From assembly GCA_044892525.1 (NCBI GenBank), contig CM097886.1, positions 30,070,001-30,134,000 on the forward strand: a DNA stretch of 64,000 bases, given 5' to 3'. The notes beneath the pieces were generated by a model, which searched no databases, was not told the origin of the DNA, and saw nothing but the letters and a program-made list of their open reading frames with translations. Below, piece after piece: positions 11,730 through 43,212 of the stretch (positions are counted from its first letter, which is position 1; each line of letters starts with the position of its first letter). The position numbers and the translations under genes were made by a program. The DNA is from Schmidtea polychroa. Lineage: Eukaryota.

Positions 11730-12178
11730 AAATCAAGAAATACTAGCTAATTATTTAATTCCAATAAAGGCGAGATAAACCACAGATTGGTTATCGAAAC
11801 TGCTACAAATATTCTCTTTTCTTCTTTAATTGTTACTCAATACTCCAATAGATACTGGAGTTTAGATATAGTATTAATGAAACAAAAATTCCAAGAAAAT
11901 TGTTAATCATCTTTCCAATCAATAAATTGACTATCAAATTAGTAGTGAATGTCGAATCAAACTTGAATGGCAAATCAGATAGCTGCTAGAAATTTCTGAA
12001 TCTAATAATAGCTGTTCCTTTCCGCTATTCTTGATCTTTTCTGTCGAGTACTATTTTTCTCTTCGTCCCTGTAGTCAAACCAATTAAATCAATATAAATA
12101 TTAAATTAATATTTATATTAATAATAACATATTTAAAAACTTTGTTTTAATATGTTATTAATTTGATAAAAATAGAAT

Positions 12179-12991
12179 TTGAAAAAGTCGTCTTACTTAT
12201 TAATAATAATGCAAATCAATGTAGAAGACAACATTGGTGTCAGAAGTGTGGCTCAAGAAAGTAGTCACATTCAAATGAAAATTTCAACATTTTTCGACAA
12301 TGTCGCAGTCTGGTTTCAACAAGTGGACGCAGCACTGGAACTGGCCTCAATCAGAAACGAAAAAACCAAATATTTTCACTTGTTAACCAGCTTACCATCT
12401 CGCGTTCTCGAAGAGTACTCGGATTTAATGGATCCACATATCAAGCAGCCATATTCAGCACTTAAAGAAGCAATTATTAATGACTCAAAAGGATCAACAA
12501 CGGAGGCAGCAAACAAACATTTACAGAAACAGGAACTTGGGGATCGGAAACCAAGCCAACTCCTTAGAGAATTAAAAAGAAACTATAAAATAATGGAACC
12601 CAATGGTGACCCAGAAACGAGCAAAATTCTCAGACATCAGTTCATTAACTCCATGCCAGTTCACATTCAATACCTTCTAATATCGAGCAAAGTTGGCATT
12701 GATGAGTTGGCCAACATCGCCAACTTGCACGTAAGCATCAATGATCAGCATATCTCACCGGTGGGAAGTCAAAATATTGCCGGAAACTTCCATCAGCTTG
12801 CAATAGAGAACCTGCAAGATCAAATCAATGCCATAAGGGCAAACGAAAGCTCTAGTCGAAAGGAACGTCATTCGAGTGAAGAAACAATATGTTATTTTCA
12901 CAGACGATTCGGAATAAAAGCCAGGAAATGCCAAAAACCGTGTTGCTGGTCTGATTCAGTTAAGTCGGGAAAAGGCCAAGGATCTCGTTAA
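12179..12991 (+). CDS. Gag of the gypsy element
   Basis: WFQQVD...KTKYFHLL, ELGDRKPSQLLREL and C.FHRRFG.KA.KC..PC motifs typical of this gypsy clade. Confidence 0.9.
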   Translation: MKKSSYLLIIMQINVEDNIGVRSVAQESSHIQMKISTFFDNVAVWFQQVDAALELASIRNEKTKYFHLLTSLPSRVLEEYSDLMDPHIKQPYSALKEAIINDSKGSTTEAANKHLQKQELGDRKPSQLLRELKRNYKIMEPNGDPETSKILRHQFINSMPVHIQYLLISSKVGIDELANIANLHVSINDQHISPVGSQNIAGNFHQLAIENLQDQINAIRANESSSRKERHSSEETICYFHRRFGIKARKCQKPCCWSDSVKSGKGQGSR

Positions 12992-15867
12992 TGTCGACGA
13001 CAGAGATCCAATGCTCAACTCAACAGTCGACAAAGATTAATGCAATTTTCACTGTTCCAGTCCTCTATGACAATAAATCATATGATTTTCTCATTGATTC
13101 TGGGGCAGATGTCAGCGTTATCCCAACAAAAATATTTAAACCCGATTCCAGAATTGCACCGATCAGACTCATAGCGGCTAACAACTGTAGCATAAAAGTA
13201 CATGACTCAAAAGTTCTACACTTTACGATTGAAGGTCAAAAGCAGCATTTCAAATTGGAATTTATCGTAGCAGATGTTTCTCGCCCAATTCTTGGGGCAG
13301 ACTTTCTATTATATTATAGATTTCTAGTGGATTGCAAAAATGCTAAAATCTTCATCGGAAATACAGCTATCACAAATGTTAATAAAGGAAGCAATTCAGT
13401 CAGCTCTGAGCATGCAATGGCAATCGAAACAACTGGGCCACCAATTGCGCAGTCAGTAAGACGCCTGGGTGGACGCATGCTTGAAGCCGTTCAAACTGAA
13501 TTCGATACCTTGATCAAAAAGGGAATCCTAAGGGAAAGTAAGAGTGACTGGGCGTCACCATTGGTAATAGTTAAGAAGAAAGATGGATCAATACGCCCAT
13601 GCGGTGACTACAGACTCCTGAACTCAGTCACGAAAGTCGACAAATATCCTCTGCCCAGAATAAGCGACATCTTAGATCAACTCGGGGGAAGCAAAATATT
13701 TTCAACGATCGATCTGGAAAAGGCATATCACCAAATCCTAATTGAAGCAAACGACATCCCAAAAACAGCAATAATTACACCTTTTGGGCTATACGAATAC
13801 CTCAAAATGCCTTTTGGACTGAGGAAAGCATCACAAACTTTCCAAAGATTCATGGACAAGCTTCTACGTCCATACAGGATGTTCTCCAGAGCGTACATCG
13901 ATGACATAATCATTTTCTCTAAATCGAATGAAGATCATGAAAAACATTTGCAAACAATCGAAAAAGTTCTAAAAGATGCACATTTATCAATAAATAAAGA
14001 TAAAAGCTGATTGGCTAAAAATCAGGTTAACTTTCTTGGATTTCACATTTCAGACTCAGGAATCTCACCCCAAACCGATAAGATTCAAGCAATCACCTCC
14101 TGTTCAAGGCCAGGCGATGCTAAGGCACTGAGACAATTTATTGGAATGGTAACATTCTATCACTGGCTAATACCGAATTTGGCGGATATAATGGCTCCGT
14201 TACATGAACTGACATCAAACGGAGCAAAAGACAAACGTAAATATATCTGGAAAGATCAACACTCGCAAGCATTTGAAACGGCAAAGAAAAAACTGCAAGA
14301 AATCACTGAAATGATCCCTCCAGATTCGCAACGCACATTCATCGTATGCACGGATGCATCGGACATTGGAATTGGTGCAAGCCTTAATCACAGAACGGCA
14401 GAAGGTAAACTTACACCAATCAGTTTTTTCTCTAGAAAGCTCAACAAAACTGAACAAAGATATTCAACATTTGACCGAGAACTATTAGCTGCCTATTTAG
14501 CCATCAAAAATTTCAAACATCACCTGGATGGCAATACATTCAAATTATTAACCGATCACAAGCCATTGGTATACATAAATACAATGAAAGACCCATCCAA
14601 TAGACAATGGCGATGGATCCAGTTCATAAACGAATTTGATGCAAAGATAATTCACATCAAAGGGAAAGACAACATTATCGCAGATTTCCTATCAAGACAA
14701 TCTAATTCAGACAACAATACTCTCAATATTGTTGAGACTGTGCCGATGACAAAAAATGAAATAATTAATCAACAAAGACAACAATCATTCGCCCAAACCT
14801 TGAAGCCAAATCACTCATTTAAAATAAGTATAGATGATGACGGAATCCTAGTGGATATGTCTACTGGCTCCCCTCGAATAATACTGCCAGAACCATTTCA
14901 ATTCAGGGAATTCCAGCGGCTTCATAATTTATGCCACCCAGGAGCAAATGGGACAATAAAATTGATATCGTCAAAATATGCGTGGCCCTGTATGCGAGCA
15001 CAAATTAGGGAGTGGTGTAGAATGTGTGAAAAGTGTCAAAGAAATAAAGTGACGAGACACACAAAGTCGAGCTTGAAGGAACTTCCAGAAGCAGGAAAAT
15101 TCAAAGTCATTCATATCGACATTGTCGGCCCACTCCCATCAGTAAATAATAAAAGATTCATGCTTACTATAATTGACAGACACACCTTATGGCAAGAAGC
15201 AATTCCTATCTCTGATATCACAAGCAGTTTAGTAACCAAAACAGTAGAAAATGAGTGGATAGCTCGATACGGAGCCCCCGAGATAATGATCACAGACAAT
15301 GGTAAGCAATTCATTTCATCCACATTTAGAGAATTCTGTGAAAAGCACAACATCGATCACAGACACACAACACCATACCATCCCCAATGCAATGGCAAAG
15401 TTGAAAGATTTCATAGAACTCTCAAGACGGCTTTGAGAACACATTCAGAAGATGCAAATAGAAATTGGGCCCATGATCTACCATTGGTATTACTGGGGCT
15501 TCGAAATGTCGTTTCAGAAGACAATAATCAATCACCAAGCCAAGCGGTCTTTGGAATCAATGGGAAACTATCTGGAGACACTACAATTAAAAGAACTAGA
15601 AAACAAAATTGGAAAACATTCTTTCCAGAGGATTTGAAGACATGCACTCATGTATGGCTTAAAGTGGAAACAAGAACAACTTTAAGGGCTATGTATGATG
15701 GACCATTCCAAATTATTAGTCGAAGCCCAGACCTCAAAACTTTCGAAATTCAACTTCCGACAAGAAACCTTCGTGTTTCGGTAGACAAGTTAAAACCCGC
15801 GTACATTTCAACCAATAACAAATCACTCCTTGATCTAGGTGGAGGGCTATGTAGTCAAACCAATTAA
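12991..15867 (+). pseudogene. Pol (PR-RT-RH-IN) with one in-frame TGA at 14008-14010
   Basis: LIDSGADVS protease; RPCGDYR, YIDDII RT; CTDASD RNase H; HNLCH/C..C and DIVGP...TDNG...ERFHR integrase. Confidence 0.93.
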
Positions 15868-17039
15868 ATCAATATAAATATTAAATTAATATTTATATTA
15901 ATAATAACATATTTAAAAACTTTGTTTTAATATATTATTAATTTGATAAAAAAAGAATTTGAAAAAGTCGTCTTACTTATTAATAATAATGCAAATCAAT
16001 GTAGAAGACAACAGTCCCCCCAACTCAACTTTTCGACTGGTATTTATACCATTTTATTTATTTAAATCTATTAATAGCAATTATTTAATTACTATTTTTA
16101 TTATATATTTTTAAACAATTACTATTTTTGTTACAAATCTATTTTTAGTAATTGTTTATTACTATTTATATTTTAATTCTAATTTTAGTAATTTTTAAAT
16201 ACTATTTATATTTTAATTCTAATTTTAGTAAATTTTTTAAATACTATTTTTAATTAATTATTATTTAATTCCAAAACTTTTGATTCCGGTTCCTACTGAA
16301 CCCCAACATCTGCATTGTCACTAACTAGTGCTAATGGTCAACCAATATGTCAATTATTTGATGAAAAAATTACTAGTAAGACGAGTTCGAGTTGATCCGT
16401 CGATATTAACAGGTCATCAGTTGGGTCTTAATTTTAAACATGCAATCTATCCACTGAAAACCAAAGAAATTGTTTCATTTGCAATAGCCAAAGGTGCAAA
16501 GGAACAAATATTTGGAAATAGAAGAATGCCAAACTTTATTTTGATAACATTTCAATCTGAAACTCAATATAATAAATCATACAGTGTTTCAAGCTCAATT
16601 TTCAAAAACTTTGGTGTTACATCCTTGTCATTATCTAAAAATACTGATTATAGAGAAACATAATCAAGATTTTGATAATGATAATTACTGTGCTACATAT
16701 ATGTAAAGTATTGTGAAAAATATGGGCTATTTAGATAAAAATTTGAATTGTGTTATAACTCTAGAAGAATTCAAAACCAAATATCCGTTCTTTACATTTG
16801 TTTTGGCACCTGATTTTGATTTTGAATCAGAGTCAATTACCTCAAAATGGAAATTTACGATTAGATATAAAGTTTGCAAAAGCTATTGTAAAACCTGTGC
16901 ATGTTATAATATATGGAGTATTTGAAAATGAGGTACAAATTACTGGAAATAGAGCTGTTCTGGTATAGGTATAAATGCGTTTGGTAATATTAAAAATTTG
17001 TCATGGAGTAAGGTCTTCGTGTAATATTTAATTTATTGA

Positions 17040-17532: not shown

Positions 17533-20500
17533 ATGGATTCAAACAATTCAAAAGTTGTTGATGGTCATTTTAAATTTTAATTTTATATAGTTATTTACTT
17601 TATTATTTTAGATGTTTTTATCGGAGATTGGTTCCTGATTACGGAAAATGAAGATCTCCTGAATATTTCCAGAATTTTTGAAAATTGTAAATTATTTTAA
17701 TTTTATATATTTTTTTTAAACATGCATATTTTAGTTGTAATTAATGAAGAAATAAATTATGTCTCCGATGGGATAATTATGGAACCCGAAGATGTCCATG
17801 AAAAATTTTGGTGTTTTTTGTTTTATTTTTTATTTTATATGTTAATAATTATTGTAAGATGATATAATAATTTCCAACGAATTACTTACATAACCAGGTC
17901 ACTAGACCTTGATATCTATTGAATGATGCGGGAATGCTTGTATAACTAAATTAAGTAAGTGTGTTTGTCTTCTGTGTCAACAGTATCACTTAAACTAATA
18001 ATTCTCCCTTTTGTAGATTACGCAATTCAATGTACTATAAATAGTATAACGATTGTGTGTTCCGTTTAGATTTTTGAAGTGAATAAAGATTTCTGTAAAA
18101 CTATGTCTTCTTCTAACATGGCGACCACGCCAGGACTCCAGAACTATATCAAGCCACCTAATCAATTGCTGCCAAATGGTGATTTAGAAATTTTTATTTT
18201 TGAATTGAAGAGATTTTTCGAAGTCACTCAACAACCGCAAGAAACTTAAGAAATTTTTACCAAGGCCTTTCTGTCGGTAGAGTTGATCCAGAAATATGAA
18301 GAAGTACAGAGCGATTATTCAGGCTATGAAGAAAGATTAAGAAAAGCGTTCGAGCTAAGGAAAAATCTAGCCATGGATCTAGACGCAGCTTTAAGATATC
18401 GAAAAGGAAATGACTCGTGCACCGAATTTTTCAATAAAGTGGAAAAGCTCGTCGACAATGTTCTTCGACACAAATTAACAAAACCGGCATTAATGTTATT
18501 TTTAATGCAGAATGCAATGGAAGATATGGAAACAAAAAAAGAATTGAAATTAAGAGAAGTTAAATCAGTAGATAAGGCCAAGGAAGTGATATCAAGAATG
18601 GAAGAAATTCAAAAAGAGCTTTCAAGTGAACAATCATTAGCATTTCTACATGAAAATAAATCATATGCGGAGACAGTCAAAAGTCCGAGAAAAACTCAGT
18701 TGTACCCACAAAATAAGACGCCAATATTTTCTAACTCTAGAACCAATGAGGCCGTGAACTTCAATATGCCAAATAAAAGTGACTGGAAGAACGGGACCAG
18801 GCGATTTAGACTGCAGTGATGTTGGGCGTGTGGAGAGCAAGGACATATTCGAGCAGAATGCCCAAACGTAAAATGCTCTCAATGTTCCAAAAATGGTCAT
18901 TTCAAGTATCAATGTTGGGACATCAGAAGAAATTCAGTTAAAACAGAAGCATATTACAACGGAAGAAATTATGATAAAAATCAAAAACAATTTGGATCCA
19001 GAGGACAATATCAAAGCAGAAACCAATCTTCAGACAGAGGACAACATCGAAGACAATGCAAAGCGATATACGACTACAAATACGAGGAAGGAGAGCTGAT
19101 TCAACAGGATGACATGCAAAAAGATTGCGAACAGCTAAAAGGGGAGGCTCCAGTTTCAAGGGAGTTGCTAGGAGCCATAAATTTGGTTTAAGTAAGTATA
19201 TTGTTGACACAGAATGTTTGAATTTGAATGCTTGTGATTTCAAGAATTCCGTAATGAATGAATTTAAAGATGATTTAAAAATTAATGATGTAATTATGAA
19301 TGATTGTGAATGTTTTGACTTTGAAAATTTTTTGAATATAGTTTTTATGAAATTAATAACAAAATTGATAAGATTATGAGTATCGATATAATTAATAATA
19401 AAGTTAATGAAAATAAAGAAAGACCTTTTGCACCTAAATTCGTTTATGAAAGAATGAATGGCAGACCTAGTGTAGGTATTTGGCTGGAAAATAAAATAAA
19501 AGTTGATTGTCTTTTGGATATCGGGGTTAGAATAAACGTGATTAGCGAAGATGTTGTTAGTAAATTAAAGATGCGTGATAAAATAGGGGAATCCAATATT
19601 ATGGTTACATGTGCAAACGAGAGCACACTTAAAATCATAGAAACAATATTACTAAAAGTGAGAATTTCGGGATTAGAATTGGTAATAAGATTCTTTGTGG
19701 CAAATAAGATTAACCCGAGCGTAATTGCAGGCGTAGAAATGATGAATTGTTTTGATATTAAATTACAAGCAGTAACTAAAGTAAAATTAAAAAATCAATT
19801 AATGAATTTAGAGGAAAACCATTTGAAAGGAATTATCGACCCAACGATTAATAAATTACTTAAAGAATTTTCGGATATATTCATGAAAAATAAATGGGAT
19901 GTAGGAAAAACACAGTTAATTAAACATAAGATAGTTACTAGAGGTAGCCCAGTGACAATTAATCCTAGACGTCAGCCGATTCATATTGCTCACAAAATAC
20001 TAGACATGCTAAAAGACATGGAAGAAGCAGGAATTATAAAAAAATGTGACTCGGTGTGGAATAGCCCATTGGTATGTGTGTTAAAAAAGAATAAATCAGA
20101 TATTAGAATATGTTTGGATTTTCGGGCACTAAATTCAATTACGGAGAGACCTCGATTTCCAATACCAAATATTGAAGAGATGCTGGATATCCTAAATGGA
20201 GCACAGATATTTAGCACTATCGATCTTGGTAATGCTTATTATCAAGTGGAATTAGAAGAGGAATCAAAAATAAAGACTGCATCTTCAACAAAAGATGGTC
20301 AATATTGTTTTAACCGAATGCCTTTTGGAATTGCAGCTGCCCCAGCAACTTTTCAAAAATTAATGACTCAAGTTTTGGGTGATCTTAATTGGAGAGAAGC
20401 AATTGTCTATTTAGACGATATCCTTATATTTTTAGACAATGAAATCGAACATAAAAAAAGACTAGAAAGAGTTTTTCGAAAGATTCAAGAAGCTGGTTTG

Positions 20501-22641
20501 AAAATAAGCTTAGAAAAATGTTGTTTTAACAAACTAGAAATAAAATTTTTGGGACAAATTATAAATATAAAAGGTATTAAGACAGATTATGAAAAGATAA
20601 AAGCAATGCAAGAATACGAAAAACCAAAATGTATTAAACGTTTAAGAAGCTAGCTTTCTAGGCTTAACAAATTATTATCGAAAATTTGTTAAAGATTACG
20701 CCAAGTATGCCAGACCATTAGAAAGGTTATGTGGGTCTAACAAAGATAAACGTATATGGACTGAAGAATGTGAAACAAATTTCAACACGCTAAAGAAAGC
20801 GTTAACGTCTACCCCAGTACTAGGATTTCCGGATTTACGAAAAACCTTTATTTTAGATACAGATGCTAGTTTCGATACGATTGGGGAGTGCTTTCGCAGT
20901 TGAGTAGTAATGGACATGAACAAGTTATTGCATATGGATCAAAGACAATGAATAAGCACGAAATCGGTTACTGCATTACGCGAAAGGAATTGCTTCCAAT
21001 CTATCATTTTACTCAGCATTTCAAACACTATCTATATGGAAAAAGATTTACTTTAAGAACCGATCATAAAGCTATAACCTTTATGATAAATACAAAAAAG
21101 CCAATTACAGCACAATTCCAAACATGGATTAACTATTTAAGTGGGCTAGATATCAAATTAGAATACAGAAAAGAAGAATTGCATGCTAGCGCAGATGCCC
21201 TATCAAGAAAAGACTGTACTTCATGTAGTTAGTGCCAAACAGTTCATGAAAACGCCAAGGTAGATAAAAATAAAACTAAAATATTGGCCATAGAAAATAT
21301 GGACCAAGAAATAAGAATAAATAATGAAGGTATAATTTTTAATATACATTAAGACTTATGTCACGCAGAGGTAAAAATAATTTACGAATATGCATGGAAA
21401 AATATGAAAATAAAAATTAGTGAAAACGAAGTTAGAAGAGTGATTGAAAATTGTGAACAGTGTCAGAAACGGAAGACGTGGACAAGACGAACAAAAGAAC
21501 CGCTGATTAAACAGACTACAGATGAAGTTTTCAAAGAGATATTTATTGATTTCTGCGGACCATTTAAGAAACCAATTCATGGAAAACAATATATTTTAGC
21601 TATAATTGACCAATTCAGTAGGTATATATCATTGACGGCAGTTGCTCATTAGGATGAAAAGACGACGGCAAAGATTTTAAGAAAATTGGATTTTGAAATT
21701 TGGTGCCCCTAAAATCATTCACTCCGATAGAGGAAAAACATTTGAATTTCAACTCCTTTTAGAAGTGTTGAAAACTTATCATATTACAATAATATATTCA
21801 AGCCCATATCATCATAGTACAAATGGGTTAGTTGAGAGGCAATTTAGAACTATAAGGGATGCAATTGCAATTACGTTAAAAGACAAACGGCATAAAGATT
21901 GGGCAGAAATATTGCCAGATGTGAAATTTATGTTAAATGCGACGATACAGCAGACAACCGGATTTTCGCCCTCTGAAATAATATTTGGGCGGAATATTTG
22001 TAGACAATGGATGGAAAAAGAGAATTTGGATATACAAAATAATGATGCTAATAATCGGAGAAGGGAGATCGTGGAGGGAATTAAACATAAACAAAACATA
22101 GAAAAGAATTTAATTACACAAAATTATAGGAATTTTGAAGTTGGAGACCAAGTATTGGTTAAAAAAGAAAATACTAGAAAGATGGATGAACGTTATGAAG
22201 GGCCTTATGAAATAACTGGAAAACGACATAACAGAAGCTATGTTCTAAAGAATAAGCAAGGCAAAGAAATAATTCGAAATGTAGAATGGACCAAAAGTTT
22301 TAAATGGAGGGGGATGTAAGATGATATAATAATTTCCAACGAATTACTTACATAACCAGGTCACTAGACCTTGATATCTATTGAATGATGCGGGAATGCT
22401 TGTATAACTAAATTAAGTAAGTATGTTTGTCTTCTGTGTCAACAGTATCACTTAAACTAATAATTCTCCCTTTTGTAGATTACGCAATTCAATGTACTAT
22501 AAATAGTATAACGATTGTGTGTTCCGTTTAGATTTTTGAAGTGAATAAAGATTTCTGTAAAACTATGTCTTCTTCTAACAATTATAGTAATAATATTAAT
22601 GATTTTTATAATAATGATTTTAATAATATTTATAATTTTTA

Positions 22642-26237: not shown

Positions 26238-28562
26238 GTTAAGTAAATTATGGTGTAAAATGTTAAATTAAGTAATACAAGGATAAATATGTAAATTAAG
26301 GATCAAATTTCTAAATAAAACTAATAATTTTAAATTAAAGTTAAATTAAAGTAATAATTTTTAAATAAAAGTAAATTAATGTAATAAGTAAATTAAAGTA
26401 AGATTTTTAAATTTATTAACAAAAAGTTTGAATAACCAACAGCTTCTGAGAAATAAAAATTTTTAAGTTAATTTTCAAAGACAAATTTAATTTGAATAAT
26501 TTTTTAAGTTAATTTTTTATAGAAATTTTAATGGAATAATTTTTAATGGAAATTTTAATGAAATAATTTTCAAAGTAAATTTTATATTGAAATTTTTATT
26601 TTTATTTTTTTCAAAGTCAATTTTAGATGAATCATTAATCCTTTAATCATTAATCATTTAATCATTAACCATCCAGTAAATAAAAAATACTAATCATTCA
26701 AGTTAATATGAATCAGCTAAGATAATAAATTAATAATTATTTTGAAATAAGATCTACTAGATAATTGATTTAGATTGAATAAATTAATTGAAATAAATTA
26801 ATTTTAATTATTTTTTTAAAAGTAATACGTATACTCAAATTAATTAACTTATTGCTCAACATATTCCAAAAATTCAGTATAAATTCATTACAATTATCAA
26901 TATCGTCAATCTACACTAAAATTAATTATCATTAAATTCCAAAAGAGACTGATAACTAATGATAAAATCTAATAAACAATTAAATTCATTTAAATGACAA
27001 TAATTGTTAAATCCAAGCAAATTCTTTAATAAAATCATCTAAAAAGCATCAAATTTCCCTAAATATATCTGTTTCAGCCGATTTTGGCGTTTTTTTATCG
27101 CGTATTTTTTTATTTACTGGATGATTAATGATTAGAATTTAAAGTTCTTTCTTGTCCATTAATTACATTTTGTTATTTATTATATTTTGAATAACTTAAA
27201 TTTTTACATTTATTTAATCCATTTTTACCTAGCTATTGGAAAATCTTGAGTTCAATTAATTTTTCATCCAATTTTATCAAGTGAAGAGTATTTTCTTTTA
27301 AAGATCAATTGTTAGTATTTGGTATCTGGTTGTTAGTTGTAGGTTGATATTTGTCGATTTCTCGATGGGTTTTGATGGTGGTTGTTAGTATCTAGTTGAG
27401 TGTTACCAATACCCTTACGACCAGTAACCTTACGACTAATACCCTTACGGCTAATACTAATACGGCTAATACCCTTAGGGGGTCAAAACATCCTGTCGGA
27501 TAAACTCCGAGTTATATAATAAAATGAATCAACAATAACTATTTATTTAATGCGATAATAAGTCAGTAGTAATCAATTAAAAGAAGAATGTTTTGTGAAT
27601 AAAATTCAATAGTCTTTCATTATAATTTTATCTTCAATTCCATGGGATGTTTTAAAGTAGTTGAGTTGACAATTATTCATTTTTTATTCAATTATTCATT
27701 AAAAAATGATTCCATTAAATTTATTTTAAAATTTAACTTCAAGAAAAATTCCATTAAAATTTTTATTTAAAATTGACTTTATAAATTATTTCATAAAAAT
27801 TTTCGTTTTAAATTTTTATTTCTCAAAAATTGACTATATTTCTAAATTTTTGGTAATAAATTTAAAAATCTTACTTTATTTACTTATTACATTAACCCTC
27901 TCCGTGTAAAAAATAATGCTGATATTTATAGTGACCCATTCTATTCCCACAAAAACTGTTACAAAATGTGCCTTCAGCTTCATCCCGATGGATTCAAAGC
28001 TGGAAAAGGGACACATCTTTCTGTTTTCTTTTTCATAATGCGCGGTGAAAACGATGTACTTTTGCAATGGCCTATGAAACTGGAAGTGACATCTTGCTTT
28101 AATGTCGAATATATAATATAGTTAACAACCAAATATAACCTATATTTACATATTTAATTCACAAAGATTAGCATCTAAAATTGACTTTGAAAAATATCTC
28201 ATAAAAATTTCAATATAAAATTTACTTTGAAAATTATTTCATTAAAATTTCCATTAAAAATTATTCCATTAAAATTTCTATAAAAAATTAACTTAAAAAA
28301 TTATTCAAATTAAATTTGTCTTTGAAAATTAACTTAAAAATTTTTATTTCTCAGAAGCTGTTGGTTATTCAAACTTTTTAATAATAAATTTAAAAATCTT
28401 ACTTTAATTTACTTATTACATTAATTTACTTTTATTTAAAAATTATTACTTTAATTTAACTTTAATTTAAAATTATTACTTTTATTTAAAAATTTGATCC
28501 TTAATTTACATATTTATCCTTGTATTACTTAATTTAACATTTTACACCATAATTTACTTAAC
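26238..28562. mobile_element. AT-rich foldback-like structure with about 360-bp inverted arms
   Basis: 26238-26599 is a near-perfect reverse complement of 28201-28562; related direct partial copies at about 27700-27895 and 28560-28900. Confidence 0.8.
27900..28103 (+). pseudogene. TRAF: Fragment of a TRAF-family MATH/TRAF-C domain
   Basis: Manual translation IYSDPFYSHKNCYKMCLQLHPDGFKAGKGTHLSVFFFIMRGENDVLLQWPMKLEVT matches the TRAF motif S.PFYT..GYKMC.R.Y.NG.G.GKGTHLSLFFVIMRGEYDALL.WPF. No start codon; embedded in repeat DNA. Confidence 0.88.
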
Positions 28563-33027: not shown

Positions 33028-34899
33028 ATCGTTCTATGAAACTTTCCTTCGATCTATTTTCCGTTCTCATTGAATTTTGGTGTGTATCATGTTTTGTTTA
33101 TAATGTCAGTGGGAGTATATTAAATAAATCATTGTTTTATGTTGATTGGTCTACGTTTTTCTTTAACCACGTTTGATCGGTATGGTTTTTCTTTTTTCCC
33201 TTTTCTACATTAAGCGATCTAGATGAATACGTATGATATTCTCCTTGGACCAGGGTTTAACAAAAGAAGTTTCTGTATGATTTCTGAATTATTTCATAGG
33301 GATTGTAAGCCTTCTATCGGCCTTTGAACCCGTAATGACAACACTATGGAGAATAGTTTTGAGACAGAAGCTCACCTGTCCATAAGTCTTCAGCTACTAT
33401 GTGCAGTACCAACATGGTCGTCACCATGGGCACATAAGTAGTCATCGCAACAATCACCTTGGCGTCTAGGATGGGGTTTTGCTGAGACAACTGGAATCTT
33501 CCCTAGTCACGATTTTGAGTAGGACCCACCCCTAGGCGCCAACATGATTTTTGGGGGCTCAGCCGGGATTGAGATCTACTTAATTAAAAGAAGTTGAGTG
33601 ATTTGATTGATATGACAAAGTTGATTGGTCTATGTCATTGTTATAATCATCAAAATTGGGAAAATGAAAATCGGGAAAAGGATAAGAAATAGGTTAAAGA
33701 CAAATAATAACCAGTAAAAATAAAAGTTTCTAGTGATTAAGTAAATGGAAAGAGATCTGACCGGGAAATGAGGAGGGAAAGTCATAAAATAATTATAAAG
33801 TCAAAATAATAATAACAAATAAAGAAACAAATTTCCTTAACCAATTATAATAAATTAACCGCAGAAAATAAGAACCAAAATAAAACAACAATAATAACAA
33901 GAACAAAAATTGGAAATTTTTTTTGTAAACATTAAATAATTAGCAATTATAAATAACTAGAAAATTAATTATTTAAGTAACAGATATGTCAGAAGCACAA
34001 GAACATTTGCAGAGAATAATCAAATTCGCCAACATAGAGAACGACTCCATAAGTACGCTAACAGAAAAACTCATACAAATCGAAAGTATCAAACAACAAC
34101 ACCGTGACGACCAACAGTTAACGTCAACGCGTAACCTTTTTATCATCGGACTCTGTCAATAAGATAATAAGATGGGATTATCCACCAGTTATTAATGGTA
34201 TAAAATGGAACATGTTATATTTGTAAAGCACAGCCTAGCCGAATATTGATTCTTCCATGAGGTCTCTGTGAGAATTGTAGCATGAATCTGGAAAACTGCT
34301 CGGTATGTCAATGTGAAATAAAAGAAATGCACGTAGTGTACTATGAATAGAATAACTATCTATTATGAAAACATTCAAATAAGAAATCACTGTCCTATGC
34401 TTTTTGATGAATGTATAAGTATGTGTAAAACGATGTGAAATAATTATTAAAAATTAATGATTTATTTTTCTTGTTATTTGATTTTGTGCTATTATATTTA
34501 AAAATTTTATAAAGAGAAAAAGAAAACCTGATAATATAAAGTGGAGTTAATCCCAATATAGGAAATTACATATAAACCGAGCCACCTTCGGGAGGTACGA
34601 TACACCAAACCAATTGGAAGGGATAACCGATCACCCTGAGTAAGAAATGTAGGACGAGGTACCATTGCAAATGATGAGATGTTTCTGCGGCATGACTGAT
34701 CACCATGCCAATGTGGAAATGGATCATCGCGATCGTTGTGCATTTCAAGCAAAGAGAAAAAGGGGAAACATTCCTAAGCGGTAAAGTAAGAAATAACTAC
34801 ATGTAGACAACGACCCTAAAAAGTAAAAGATCAGAGTATAAGTGAACCTGGGACGAGAAATAAGAAAGATCATGTGAGAAAATCCACGAGTCTATAAAA

Positions 34900-35090
34900 A
34901 GTCGACTTAAATTTAGTAAAACTGAGTTATGGAAAGCACCGCCAGTTATCAGAAGCTTGAAAAGTCAGCTTAAATTGAGTAAAACTGAGTTAGGGAAAGC
35001 ACTTCCAGTTATTAGAAGCTTGAAAAGTCAGCTGAGTTGGAGAAAGTTCCACTAGATAATAGAAGCTTGAAAAGTCAGCATAAAATAAGT
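34900..35090. repeat. About 50-63-bp tandem repeats (AGAAGCTTGAAAAGTCAGC core)
   Basis: The core is seen three times, with GGAAAGCAC motifs between copies. Confidence 0.7.
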
Positions 35091-35376
35091 AATTGAGGTA
35101 GAGAACGCATCACCAAGATAAAACAGCTAGCTAGGAAAAATAAATCGTTGAGGTAGGGAAAGCACCACCCAATCACTAGAGGTTAGGAATGTCAACCATA
35201 AAAGATAAAGTTAAATGAGCTCAACAGTAATAATAGTAAACACCCTCAAAATAAGTATAGGAAATAACAGTATATAGAATAAAATCAAAGAGATAAGATA
35301 GTACAATAACTGAATCAATTAAAGAGAAATAGATTAATAAAGCTGCAGCATAGGAATAAATGAAAAATTGTTTTGT

Positions 35377-35601
35377 GGTTTCGAAAGCTGAAGCCCCCGA
35401 GGCCTGAATAAGTGTTGTAGTCTCGAAAGCAGAGACCAATAGAATAAGAATTTTGATGATTAAAATGAAGCAAGAGGGGAAAGAGATTTTTCTTTAAGTT
35501 TCGAAAGCGGAAACTAACAAGATAAGAATTTTTAGTAGTCTCGAAAGCAGAGACCAATAAGATAGAAATTTTGATTTAATCGATTATTTCGAAACCAGAA
35601 A
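35377..35601 (+). promoter_or_regulatory. Array of five small hairpins with a conserved GAAA(G/C)CN loop
   Basis: GGTTTC-GAAAGCT-GAAGCC (35377), GTCTC-GAAAGCA-GAGAC (35420, 35538), AGTTTC-GAAAGCG-GAAACT (35497), TTTC-GAAACCA-GAAA (35587). Function is inferred only. Confidence 0.5.
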
Positions 35602-36055
35602 CAAATTAAATGAGAATTTTTGCAGTGTTAGGAATAGAATAAAATGAAAGGGATGCGCAAAAAGTGGAATAAGTAAATGGGGGGAAATTATAGGTGACAT
35701 ACCGACAACGACCTATCAGTATTATAATTGATAAAAAATAGATAATTTTTACGACCATATAGATAATTAATTACTATCCCATATAGATGATTTAAAATCG
35801 ATTAAAAATATGGGATTATGGGTAATTATAACCCGCGAAGAATAATGGAAGTAAAATATGAAAGGGAGAATAAAACAGGGACCCTTAAAGAGGTGTCTTT
35901 TGTGAACTAAAGAAAGGATGATGAAGTCGTGTAAGTGACTGCAACGCGGTCTCATTTTTAAATTGTAGATTCAATCCAAACCAAGTCCAAGTCAATTCCG
36001 AACCTGCACAAGGAGAAAACTAAGGCACCAAAGGAACACGGAGACTATTTGTGGA

Positions 36056-36421
36056 GTGAGAGGATGTTATAACTGCGGACAAGCAGGGCACATCTCGAGA
36101 GAATGCAGAGAGAGGAACCAACAACAAAGACCTCTTCCAAGATTGAATAATTACCAAAATTACCAGCCCCGACAAAGCAATCTTAACGAAGGAAAACAGA
36201 TGAATTTGATGCAAGAAATATCACAAATGAAGCAGATGATTCAGCAACTGATGCACGCAAGCCAACCACAAATACCGCAGCAAACTCAAAATATCCGAAT
36301 GATGAGGAGTACAGAGAATTTGAAAATTATGGATTTCAACAACAACATGCACAAGAGTTACAAGCAGAATTACAAGCAGATTACAAGCAGAAGAAGAAAG
36401 AGTGAAACAAAAGCGTTATAA
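36056..36421 (+). pseudogene. Gag-like fragment with a CCHC zinc knuckle and Gln-rich tail
   Basis: CYNCGQAGHISREC (CX2CX4HX4C) at 36065-36106. Confidence 0.7.
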
Positions 36422-36481
36422 ACAAAGACAAAGTCAACCATTACAAATAAATATGATGTGGATGGTGTTTAATTCGATGCT

Positions 36482-36542
36482 CGCGTCTGTGTGCGCTTTT
36501 TACTTTCCTTGTGTTTTTTGGTTGTGTGCGCACACAGACGCG
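36482..36542. other. Perfect 15-bp GC-rich inverted repeat with 31-nt T-rich loop
   Basis: CGCGTCTGTGTGCGC (36482-36496) and GCGCACACAGACGCG (36528-36542). Confidence 0.85.
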
Positions 36543-36718
36543 TAAAATTGAGAATGGGTTGTGATTGTGCCTTGGAGTGAGGGGAATTTTTGTGTTTCTT
36601 CTGAACTGGCATTTGTTTGAGTGTGAATTGCAGGCGTGTTTCGAGAATTTTTGAGTTTTAATTTTGTGTGTATTTTTAGTTGAACTCGAATTGTTAGATT
36701 CTTATCGATTTTCGGTTT

Positions 36719-37429
36719 ATGTACTTCCGATCAAATATGGCTGCTTTTAACGAAGGGAGTTATGATTCAAACAATATGATCCAGGATAAATGTTCCTTTG
36801 AATCGGATAACGTCAATGGTGTTTTTGGCCAACTAATCTCAAATTTATTTGGTGGATTGATTTCCGTTGGTATTCGAGGCAATAATTGTGATGTAGTAGC
36901 TACACAAAGACAGGTTCCAGATAAAATGATTGAGAAGAGTTCAGCTACAAGATTGTTTAATATTACTGAAAGTACTGGAGGTGTTATGACTGGTATGATC
37001 CCTGATTATCGATCTCAAGTATGTCGTGCACAAATGGAAGCAGCTCGATTTAAATATAAACATGGATATGAAATGCCTTGTGACATAATATGTCGTTCTA
37101 TTGCGGATATTAAGCAGCTTTCTACCCAATCAACTGAGATGCGACCATTAGGTTGTTCAATGATGGCATTATCTTATGGTATTGAAATGGACAAATTGTT
37201 ATTATTCAAAACTGATCCCCGTGGCTATGTGGATGAAAATAAAATGATTATTCGTTATCTTGAATTTAAACAGATGGTAAAAGAACAGTACTGTTATAAC
37301 TATGGGAAAAACCCTCGGCGAATACCCATGGTCGAGCCGGAAAAAACAGTAACACCTGCAAGTGGAAACAAGACAAAAATTCCCAAAAGAATCCTCAAAG
37401 GGAATGAAAGAATTCAGGAGATATTTTGA
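36719..37429 (+). CDS. PSMA6: Chimeric 236-aa ORF containing the central part of proteasome subunit alpha-6 (alpha1)
   Basis: aa 45-170 (nt 36851-37228: GGLISVGIRG...QVPDKM...VMTGM..D.RSQV.RA..EAA.FKYKHGYE.P.D..C..IADI.Q..TQ..EMRPLGC...KTDP.GY) matches PSMA6 residues about 35-160; the flanks are unrelated. Confidence 0.9.
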   Translation: MYFRSNMAAFNEGSYDSNNMIQDKCSFESDNVNGVFGQLISNLFGGLISVGIRGNNCDVVATQRQVPDKMIEKSSATRLFNITESTGGVMTGMIPDYRSQVCRAQMEAARFKYKHGYEMPCDIICRSIADIKQLSTQSTEMRPLGCSMMALSYGIEMDKLLLFKTDPRGYVDENKMIIRYLEFKQMVKEQYCYNYGKNPRRIPMVEPEKTVTPASGNKTKIPKRILKGNERIQEIF

Positions 37430-37534
37430 CAGAATATAAAAGATAGAGTCGGAAAAGCAAACGCAGATAGAAAGACCGAAACAAGAAACGAAGACGACAA
37501 GAACTTAGATTTAACGAACCAACTCAAGCACGAA

Positions 37535-38670
37535 ATGATACAAGAAATAACGTTGGAATCAGAGGAGGAAACTATCTTCGAGAATAGAAAACTCAAGAAA
37601 GTGGAAAGAATGCAGAATATGCAAATCAATATGATGAGAATGGCTGGAAACGACTCATCAACGGACGAGGAAGAAAGCCATGTAAGTAGCTTGGGCGGAG
37701 AAGTATTTCAATTGAACGAAGTCATTGGGCAACTAAAAGACAGAATCGCGGAAAGCCACGAGAACGTAAGTGAAGAGGGAAGTGAGGTAACAAGCGAAAG
37801 TGGAGAGGATGATACCGAAAGGATGTTAAGAAACGAAAAAGGGGAAACAATGAAATATGTAACAGACATACTTCCAGTGGTAGTGAGAAACCAAGAATTT
37901 ATTGAAGCTACTCCATATAAACGCTTCATCCAAAAAATAATGAGGTTGCAAAGGAGTGAAAAAGACATATTACCAGATGAGGAGAAAATAATAATAAAGA
38001 AGTATATGGAAAAAATGAAACAAGCTGATACAACGCGATATGTCATCAAGATAGAGACGAGTAATGATATCGAAAGAATATGGATAAAGAATACAGTAAC
38101 CGATGAACTCTTCGATTGGATTCGTGAACATCTGGCTAATTCAAGAAAGAAATAATACTTATACCAACACCCAGGAGAACAGATTAAACCGGATATGCAT
38201 TTAGTAGACGCGTTAATATGGCCAGGAGAGACCTAAATACTAAAGATGCACAAAGACAAGCAGCCAATAAACAATTACGAATGGGCAAGAGATGCCAAGG
38301 CAGAATATGAATTCAACATCAAACTGAAACTAGAGCAAACGAAACAACATATTTAGAAACGAAATCTAGAAATATTGATCAAACAAATCCAAGAACAAAT
38401 AGAGGATAGTAGGGACCTACTACTAGAAAAACAATCACCCCCATGCATGAATGCATGAGTAACTTACGAGATACCGAACTATTCAGAATGAGTAGCTGGA
38501 AAACCACCAACTTGATACGAAAATATGGAAGATTAAAAGAGAAACAACCCGTCAAACTCATGATAACGATATTGTTACCAAACGAAGAAAAACAACAAAT
38601 AAAAATGAATAACCAAGATAAGGTCGGTGATCTAGTAGCGAAAATCAATGAAACGATAACAGAACGATAA
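37535..38670 (+). pseudogene. Acidic ORF remnant with UBX/ubiquitin-like segments
   Basis: 38036-38248 reads ...LFDWI...YLYQHP...L.DALIWPGET.IL through two TAA codons, resembling UBX LFDFV...YKL..TFP...L.E..LFPQETLFL; 38560-38652 MITILLPNEEKQQIKM...DKVGDLVAKI resembles a beta-grasp N-terminus. Confidence 0.35.
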
Positions 38671-38683
38671 AAAGACCAATATA

Positions 38684-39540
38684 TGTCAAGCAGAGAAGCA
38701 ATGGCAAAGAAAGATATGATAAAAACAGAACTATAAAAGGGAAAAATCAGACACGAAATTGGAAAATGCGCAAATCTGAGGAAGTGGAATAAAGTGAAAT
38801 GTTATCGAAATTAAAGCTGGAAAACGGGGGAGGGGTAGATTAGGGAATGTTGAGGAAGACAGTGAGCAAGAAATTGTAAGAAAATGTTCAGAAAGGTCGT
38901 AAAACAGACAAATGTGAAAAAACGTAAAATATTAATTAATTAATTAATTAATTGGCTAATGAGAAACCCAAGCTAATGGAGAACCCGAGTGATGAAGAAA
39001 ACCCGAGCATAGCAATTTGGAAGGGTAAATAAACGAGGAATTCAGAGGGCAATTATCCAAACAACCGGATAAACGAGGGTAAAGAAAAGATGGGGAATTA
39101 CGAAGAGAGTCAACAGAAATAGCTAATTAGGGAATGATAACTAAAGAAGTCAAAACAAATTAGGTCGAAAATGAGGCAATTACAACGATTATGGAAGTAT
39201 ATAAGGAAACTCAAAATTCACATAATCGGCGATAGCCTTAGGTAGGGAAGAAGAAACAGACGATGGGATTTCGAGGAATAAAATTAAAGAAGAAAAGGAT
39301 TATAATAAAAACTGAAGAGTTAGACAAGGAGTGTTAAAAGAGATTGGATCAGAGAGCGGAACCGAATCGAAAGGTGAACTTATTTTTTAATCGTACAAGG
39401 TTGAGACCTTCCAGAGCGGAGTCCGATCTGAAATTGTATGAGAATTGTGGTTAACCAACAGTGTAATTAATTGTTGAGAGTTGTAAATTTCTATTAAACA
39501 AATATACGTTGGGAGTTTGTGTTTATTGATTTTGGTATCA
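38684..39540 (+). mobile_element. Long LTR-like repeat (857 bp)
   Basis: Starts TGTCAAG, ends TGGTATCA; homologous to inverted copy 1771-2594; right flank lost in a gap. Confidence 0.6.
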
Positions 39541-41781: not shown

Positions 41782-43212
41782 CTAAAATAATTTCTCCTTA
41801 AATATATATTTTTTTCGAAGATTTTCTATTTCATTTTGGAAATCGGGTCCCTCAAAGTTGTCATTGTCATTTCTACATAAATTATTTTTTAATGTCATCA
41901 ACATTGCTTCAATTTCTATTGTTGGCATGGTTTCATTGAAGATCATCAGAATATTTTCATCGCTTATCAATTTCACCAAATTTGGTAAAGATTCCTTTTT
42001 GTATTTGAAACATATTAGTGGATTCTGCTTATTGTAAAAATTGACAGAAAGCAGCGGATTTCCTTTATCCTCACTCTGAAGAGTAAATGAGGCTATGACA
42101 AATTTTACATGAAGTTCTTTCAATTTTGATTCGAATTCATGAATATCTTTATTAACTTCTTTACCTTGACAGTTGGGCTTGAGTTCTATTTGAATCTGAC
42201 CGAATATTTTGTATAGATTTCTTTCTTGTATCTTTCCTACTATATCAGTGTATTTACTCATGATATTCCAAATGTGGTAATCACAGACTCTACTAATAAA
42301 CTCGCTACTGAACCAAATGCTAGGGCTGTCATTTTCCTGTCCAATGACAGTTCTTATCAATTCATTACGGAACTCTTTGTTACGACCTATATCATTCAAA
42401 GCCTGTCTAAACATACATTCTATTGCCTTAACAGTTTTGTGTTGATATCCGTACCGATGTAGCAAGTGTCGGTAATAAAACACATCGTGAATGTGAAATA
42501 TTTCTTTGTCTCTTAATGCCAAATGCCACTTGTTAGTATTTTTAATCTTTGCGATCCGCATAAAGTGCAGAATTCGTTTGATATCATGGATTTTATTCTT
42601 ATTCGACCATCCAAAGTGGATAGAGTCTCGACACATGTAGTCGAATTTGTCCACATCTAAGCCTGAACTTTTATTGGCAACGATTTCAAAAAGAAACATT
42701 CTTTCTTCTCTCTCCTGAAAATCACCTAGAATTATTCTTCGTATTAAATCGATCATATTGTCATTCAATCCTATTTTATCTTTTATAATTTTAGTGTCAC
42801 CCAATTTTTTATTGTTGATAAGCATTGAAAATATTTCGCATGATAAATCTTCATGTTTTCTTGACTCAATGGATTTATCATCGAATACGTGCTCCCAAAC
42901 ATGTGAGTAAGGCCCATGACCCAAATCATGGCACAATGCTGCGATTTCTACACATTTTATATCGTCATCTGAAATCGTAATATCTGAAATCTCTTTGTCG
43001 ATCTGAATTTTAATTTGCTTTAAAAGCTCTGAAGCTAAATGAAACGTTCCTATTGAATGCTCAAATCTCGAATAGCCAGCAGATGGGTAAACTAAATATC
43101 CGAATCCCAATTGGCAAATGTGTCTTAGCCGTTGAAATTGGATAGTGTCGATGATTTCCGTTATATATGTCGGCAGTTTGATAATTCCATGAACTATGTC
43201 ATTGACAATTGT
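41782..43212 (-). CDS. SAMHD1: SAMHD1-like HD-domain dNTP triphosphohydrolase, large terminal exon (476 codons)
   Basis: The frame extends upstream of the listed ORF to an AG acceptor at 43213-43214 (TIVNDIVHG..IIDTIQFQRLR..QLG); SRFEHSIG, ALCHDLGHGPYSH, HED, DVDKFDY..RD and R..LH...YQHK are all intact. First exon not identified. Confidence 0.93.
   Translation of the reverse strand, partial: TIVNDIVHGIIKLPTYITEIIDTIQFQRLRHICQLGFGYLVYPSAGYSRFEHSIGTFHLASELLKQIKIQIDKEISDITISDDDIKCVEIAALCHDLGHGPYSHVWEHVFDDKSIESRKHEDLSCEIFSMLINNKKLGDTKIIKDKIGLNDNMIDLIRRIILGDFQEREERMFLFEIVANKSSGLDVDKFDYMCRDSIHFGWSNKNKIHDIKRILHFMRIAKIKNTNKWHLALRDKEIFHIHDVFYYRHLLHRYGYQHKTVKAIECMFRQALNDIGRNKEFRNELIRTVIGQENDSPSIWFSSEFISRVCDYHIWNIMSKYTDIVGKIQERNLYKIFGQIQIELKPNCQGKEVNKDIHEFESKLKELHVKFVIASFTLQSEDKGNPLLSVNFYNKQNPLICFKYKKESLPNLVKLISDENILMIFNETMPTIEIEAMLMTLKNNLCRNDNDNFEGPDFQNEIENLRKKYIFKEKLF

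Follow-up and report, generated by a model that had tools for sequence, protein, structure and literature searches.

A solo long terminal repeat (LTR) belonging to a young BEL/Pao retrotransposon and lodged in a Gypsy-type gag to which it is unrelated occupies positions 36466-37272 of the window (i.e., the whole stretch of 64,000 nucleotides of Schmidtea polychroa DNA that was analyzed), and an open reading frame (ORF) of 236 amino acids runs from this repeat into the interrupted gag. The LTR carries spliced pieces of the host genes for proteasome subunit alpha type-6 (PSMA6) and for a RING-H2 ligase. We consider it likely, with a probability of roughly 0.72, that in full elements such pieces form the swappable leader of a ubiquitin-Gag-Pol polyprotein, which is likely translated and would be cut at the Gly-Gly preceding Gag. 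The window ORF itself is not a new gene and is most likely a by-product of the insertion without function. The features of the locus are as follows.

35969-36465, + strand: left part of the target, a Gypsy-type gag with a CCHC knuckle (from 36056), frameshifted (PF00098; uninterrupted relatives L157-L159)
36461-36465, + strand: left target-site duplication, GATGG, present once at the empty site
36466-37272, + strand: solo LTR, 807 bp, TG...CA; the homology of other copies stops at both ends, and the repeat also flanks BEL/Pao internal regions
36482-36542, + strand: perfect inverted repeat of 15 bp close to the 5' end of the LTR (z -5.0), also present in other LTR variants and sister lineages
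36719-37429, + strand: 236-aa ORF; the family start codon at 36737 gives 230 aa
36737-36805, + strand: leader start, MAAFNE..., the family-wide start
36806-36859, + strand: RING-H2 ligase piece, 84% identical over 75 nt to the host copy L194 (introns present)
36847-37230, + strand: captured spliced PSMA6 piece, host coding sequence (CDS) nt 96-479, 94.3% identical, intron 2 absent
37238-37243, + strand: AATAAA, candidate polyadenylation signal near the LTR 3' end
37273-37277, + strand: right target-site duplication, GATGG
37273-38155, + strand: right part of the target ORF, which gives the last ~51 codons of the apparent chimera and then runs on beyond a stop

Among the genomic copies inspected, homology to the window was confined to ~36460-37272; the knuckle and the downstream ORF were not shared, and the target relatives L157-L159 continue uninterrupted across the insertion point, which rules out that the ORF is part of the knuckle's element. 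In run X10, one contig joins 36461 to 37274 and so represents the empty site, and another is identical to the filled right junction. Retrotrans_gag, Ty3_capsid, and CCHC matches in the relative L156 identify the target as Gypsy-type. The 812-base insertion puts the target gag into the LTR frame, and the target frame, continuing as MVKEQYCYNYGK..., supplies the tail of the 236-aa ORF. As both the knuckle and the final 51 codons are target sequence, the C-terminal fusion is a chance read-through, its being in frame a one-in-three chance of insertion. The target family (window 34700-38700) has 326 candidates in the genome and may be a Burro-like giant element; a long extra coding sequence with a weak ubiquitin-like match (E 0.0017) follows gag at L156:3349-3861.

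The first-pass annotation of this locus had described a chimera with a PSMA6 core and new ends, lying downstream of a Gag zinc knuckle. Translation reproduced the open 236-aa frame at 36719-37429, PF00098 matched the CCHC knuckle upstream, and ORF residues 45-171 matched residues 35-160 of the 246 of proteasome alpha type-6 (E 1.3e-40), such that the N-terminal gate region and the C-terminal helices are missing, as had been noted. However, the knuckle belongs to the insertion target, and its link to the ORF is an accident of insertion. The 44-aa N-terminus is the LTR leader of the retrotransposon family (family ATG at 36737), and the 66-aa C-terminus is made up of 14 LTR codons and ~51 codons of the interrupted Gypsy-type gag. 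Nor is the intact frame special to the window copy, since 28 of 36 scorable LTRs picked by position (a further 17 being unscorable) are open to the LTR end.

We then characterized the family to which the LTR belongs. A six-frame search of the organism's own genome with the ORF returned 1548 candidates, of which 150 were scored and found to be 88-97% identical, apart from the window itself. A count of copies, one of the checks proposed in the first-pass annotation, gave at least 519 for the PSMA6 piece, this being the number of occurrences in the genome of an exact 24-mer spanning the lost intron. The LTR repeat was found as same-strand pairs 2.9-7.2 kb apart, between which lies an internal region with DUF1759, RVT_1, Peptidase_A17, Integrase_H2C2, and DUF5641 in BEL/Pao order; protease matches were weak (DUF1758, E 0.003, below the cut-off). 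The 5' LTR is followed by a primer-binding site (PBS) complementary to the 3' end of host tRNA-Met, with 122 exact LTR-PBS junctions in the genome, and a polypurine tract precedes the 3' LTR. Judged by domain set and order, LTR ends, target-site duplication, PBS, and polypurine tract, the family is a BEL/Pao element; the LTR pairs, PBS, and polypurine tract rule out capture by a TIR element or a Helitron. In BEL/Pao elements, Gag and Pol share one frame, and here the frame was open from the LTR into reverse transcriptase in 2 of 29 scored elements, with Gag and Pol motifs sharing a frame in others. The family is young, as paired LTRs differ at 0-8 of ~600-785 bases in 28 of the 29 elements scored; the nearest of the copies retrieved show 95.8% and 95.7% identity to the window solo LTR, a distance of ~4%. 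AATAAA was located no more than 50 nt from the LTR end in 120 of 126 scored LTRs. We also observed deletion derivatives (L173-L179, picked for long frames) with an LTR spacing of ~4 kb, near-identical LTRs, and frames of more than 1100 codons. A 19-mer of the same host tRNA-Met has 1228 exact matches genome-wide, and a tandem tRNA-Met array with a 454-bp period is present at G000:C1:79.33-79.39 Mb (L197).

The host PSMA6 gene (L063) has four exons, with introns of 50, 43, and 42 nt, and lies on another contig, which rules out that the ORF is a spliced exon of the real gene. Alignment of the window piece to this gene, as the first-pass annotation had advised, gave 94.3% identity and a dN/dS of 1.41 (18.5 non-synonymous and 3.5 synonymous changes), with intron 2, the 43-nt intron that the host carries inside the matching stretch, absent from the piece. 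The RNA-mediated capture that had been proposed is supported by this loss and by a sister lineage without introns 1 and 2. The nearest database relatives of the piece are flatworm PSMA6 proteins (60-63% identity). Upstream, the source of ORF residues 30-47 is the intron-containing host RING-H2 ligase gene L194, which we take to be RNF115/126-like; a 23-mer search of the genome for this source gave no match, and a 15-mer search gave 9 places, 6 of which were fetched. An intronless copy of the ligase matches RING and Zn_ribbon_19 in Pfam, and longer LTR variants also are without an intron of this gene. The junction of the two pieces falls at a 9-nt stretch common to both host genes, and the 3' junction varies among variants. 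A search for the source of leader residues 7-28 found no host gene. Four LTR-like copies (L192, L193, L195, and L196) were seen to carry long spliced RING-H2 ligase coding sequence, with a 199-aa ORF in L196.

The captured pieces differ from one LTR variant to another. Among 60 position-picked loci, other variants carry a Vps22/EAP30, Ras-family, or LIM piece in frame before a shortened PSMA6, with EAP30, Ras, and LIM Pfam matches in the leader frame, and in some variants, the first or last PSMA6 strands are lost. In the Vps22 piece, the first codon is a Met internal to the host protein, and identity to the host gene is mostly 94-98%; an EAP30 family search of the genome gave 328 candidates. 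Overall, captured pieces are 89-98% identical to host genes, older pieces being displaced by fresher ones. A sister LTR lineage (L050-L058, L061, and L062; e.g., at G000:C1:47.69 Mb) shares the inverted repeat and has different ends; its PSMA6 is longer (host CDS 36-562, mostly 95-98% identical, both introns gone), and two of its copies run on in frame into myotubularin and ClpP pieces. Intron loss and partial mRNA fit template switching, as far as this is described in the available part of PMC5131818, and the 9-nt stretch, seen at the RING-ligase/PSMA6 junction, may do so as well.

The frame that opens at the LTR ATG continues, in complete elements, through the PBS and on into ubiquitin and Gag; for example, one 777-aa frame (L032) holds proteasome, ubiquitin, and DUF1759 domains. 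Of 33 two-LTR elements, 18 of which had been picked partly for their long frames, 29 could be scored, and 16 of these were open from the LTR through ubiquitin to Gag; among the 7 picked by position, 3 were open. Length classes recurring in at least two independent insertions keep the frame in 9 of 11 cases between ATG and junction and in 5 of 5 between junction and PBS; single-copy classes keep it in 9 of 23. For lengths upstream of the ATG, the three frames are about equally represented (8/6/9). Recurrent out-of-frame classes, which count against selection on the frame, were seen between PBS and ubiquitin (2 of 6, one of them in 5 groups) and between ubiquitin and Gag (1 of 2).

To quantify constraint on the PSMA6 piece, changes present in three or more of 117 insertion groups (shared) were set against private ones, a proxy rather than a branch model. 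Stops in the PSMA6 frame made up 0 of 93 shared but 16 of 198 private changes (p 0.002), and the deficit was also seen in the 60 position-picked loci (0 of 85 vs. 10 of 110, p 0.0055); it became weaker with stiffer gaps (shared 1 of 94, p 0.015) and on whole codons (1 of 85 vs. 15 of 216, p 0.047; one stop, in three copies). No such depletion was found in the other two frames of the piece. The dN/dS of the piece was 0.60-0.70 for shared and 1.07-1.24 for private changes (p 0.065, and p 0.39 in the position-picked set), and since the shared value is 0.60-0.70, weak constraint on the piece is possible. Ubiquitin and Gag are under stronger constraint, with shared dN/dS values of 0.35 and 0.25-0.31, respectively. 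The Vps22 piece showed 5 synonymous and 14 non-synonymous changes, no shared stop, and one shared in-frame deletion. Judging from these length and substitution patterns, selection acts on the frame of the leader; its content appears largely unconstrained, and selection on conserved PSMA6 residues could not be detected.

Of 56 distinct copies, 53 retain the Gly-Gly immediately preceding Gag. At its end, the ubiquitin has LRLCGG instead of LRLRGG, an Arg-to-Cys change that may lower cleavage, and the purifying signal on ubiquitin is borderline (p 0.054). Ubiquitin's own first Met is lost, and 25 of 27 distinct open copies retain a Met just upstream, such that Gag could also start there. No ubiquitin-Gag fusion from another organism was seen among the best 120 of 1865 matches, a list swamped by polyubiquitins. 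Contigs of runs presumed to be RNA cover parts of the LTR, ubiquitin, and Gag and none of 37328-37600, contigs of this kind showing neither start, strand, level, nor absence. The solo LTR of the window might be transcribed; nothing ties its tail to a function. Under a second organism label, contigs of runs X2 and X3 carry Gag ~99% identical to that of L032 (3/354, 3/223, and 8/566 nt different) and a PSMA6 contig that differs from L032 more than Gag does; the near-identical Gag could reflect recent transfer, shared activity, or sample mixing. At L032:966, run X2 has a contig with an apparent adaptor, presumably the template-switch adaptor, located a few bases 5' to an ATG of the MAAFNEE type. 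This hints at a cDNA 5' end there, for which a host gene instead of the LTR could be the source.

On our preferred reading, transcription would start upstream of the LTR ATG and end near the AATAAA, and template switching onto a co-packaged mRNA would take place during reverse transcription of the transcribed part of the LTR, with cargo in the part copied first being passed to both LTRs. Since Gag starts in the LTR, frame-breaking captures would cut off Gag-Pol and be lost, and only in-frame captures would persist. Host deubiquitinases, by analogy with a viral system discussed below, would free Gag at Gly-Gly, which would account for the tolerance of any leader.

Other explanations for the open leader were considered. 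Its frame might be retained solely because an upstream ORF or nonsense-mediated decay would otherwise result, with Gag made mostly from the Met before ubiquitin or with the attached leader simply tolerated; the retention of that Met, the unconstrained content of the leader, and the altered ubiquitin tail all favor this, but the loss of ubiquitin's first Met, the conservation of Gly-Gly before Gag, and the observation that new leaders again begin at an ATG, such as the internal Vps22 Met, speak against it, and we regard it as rather unlikely. It is somewhat less likely still that the captured pieces act as RNA, matching essential host mRNAs so that piRNA silencing becomes costly, an idea compatible with the swappable-leader reading. 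Their high identity to host genes and the replacement of older pieces by fresher ones would suit such a shield, and counter-silencing by captured pieces has been proposed for Drosophila telomeric elements, according to the portion of PMC13534243 available. Conversely, no selection for staying host-like was found, and a shield would not require the sense, in-frame orientation.

The remaining two explanations assign a function to the encoded protein, and both are far less probable. The first-pass annotation had suggested a possible decoy role for the truncated alpha1 core, which would then poison alpha-ring assembly; the open frame, probably translated family-wide, the shared dN/dS below one, and two central helices modeled with good confidence are in line with this idea. 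However, shared amino-acid changes fell equally on conserved and variable PSMA6 sites (0.50 vs. 0.51 per site, for 46 and 72 sites, respectively). In the window copy, whose dN/dS against the host exceeds one, 6 of 14 changes in host residues 34-156 fall on positions with 90% or more conservation across 50 homologues, and the majority of these changes are widespread among the 117 groups (C77G in 98, A128T in 95, P149L in 93, and Y124S in 78). The piece is shortened in other LTR variants, with first or last strands lost, and the structure model of the 236-aa product has a mean pLDDT of 52.8, with 139 of 236 residues, including most of both terminal extensions, below 50. A decoy is thus very unlikely. 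That the window copy is a new chimeric gene with a meaningful unique C-terminus is more improbable again: its 236 codons are open, but the tail is interrupted target gag entered by a one-in-three chance of frame, and comparable read-through of at least 51 codons past the LTR end was seen in 3 of the 28 open position-picked LTRs.

The arrangement of start codon, PBS, and Gag has a counterpart in yeast Ty1, in which the GAG start codon lies in the 5' LTR and the coding frame extends across the PBS. The LTR start codon and coding PBS are alike, whereas Ty1 uses a short LTR part of its own in place of the ~180 codons of host mosaic found here. In domain set, LTR ends, PBS, and polypurine tract, the family resembles BEL/Pao LTR retrotransposons, as covered in the accessible text of PMC3118150, and planarian BEL1-I_SM (Repbase), for which the available part of PMC3597677 lists a host gene fragment at nt 346-589 of the internal region, inside the ORF. 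Compared by description only, BEL1-I_SM differs in that its fragment is internal, while here, several host genes are stitched together, swapped, and present in both LTRs, with ubiquitin before Gag. LTR-mediated retroposition in animals likewise yields partial, intron-less mRNA copies, multi-gene chimeras, and sense orientation, and it leaves short shared stretches at junctions, for which the 9-nt stretch here is a possible counterpart; within what PMC5131818 makes available, those retrocopies replace part of the internal ORFs between LTRs, whereas here, the cargo sits in the LTR, gag-pol is kept, and copies number in the hundreds. Cytopathic pestiviruses also carry a captured, N-terminally altered ubiquitin within a polyprotein, where, as the accessible sections of PMC8310069 report, it is a processing signal cut by host hydrolases that frees NS3; these are RNA viruses in which cleavage has been demonstrated, whereas here, it is predicted from sequence, and the tail is LRLCGG. 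The Burro giant elements described in the available text of PMC6431247 are planarian LTR elements with host-like domains in the polyprotein, but they are Gypsy elements of more than 30 kb with those domains in an internal ORF, in contrast to the recent LTR captures of the ~7-kb BEL/Pao element. We found no account of serial in-frame LTR captures before a ubiquitin-Gag fusion in the openly accessible papers searched.

The family is thus an LTR element that keeps gag-pol and carries changing host mosaics inside its LTR, and this appears to be new among gene-capturing LTR elements; in the papers compared, as far as their available text goes, cargo lies between the LTRs and replaces internal ORFs. 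Because the mosaics lie inside the LTR and the frame rather than the content is selected, a host-gene chimera spreads with every insertion and every solo LTR. Tentatively, and with some doubt, we propose that ubiquitin before Gag made the LTR of an active retrotransposon an in-frame exon-shuffling cassette for host mRNA pieces (PSMA6, RING ligase, Vps22, Rab, LIM, myotubularin, and ClpP), in which pieces would be captured serially, translated, released by deubiquitinases, and spread to hundreds of promoter-bearing LTRs; some may block piRNA silencing or disturb host degradation or membrane traffic. With hundreds of dated copies, one can ask if the captured pieces are passengers, shield the element as RNA, or act as protein effectors. 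On a practical level, LTR copies can confound the reads and gene models of PSMA6, Vps22, Rab, and similar genes in this genome.

Several other features of the window were observed. A 476-codon open frame at 41782-43212 (- strand) has an HD domain and no evident intron and is presumably SAMHD1-like. Two young Gypsy-like elements lie at 12070-16013 and 17853-22580, with direct repeats of 164 nt (99%) and 266 nt (100%), respectively, and gag-pol-like frames between them. Finally, a 362-nt inverted repeat, 99% complementary, is formed by 26238-26599 and 28201-28562, 1.6 kb apart.
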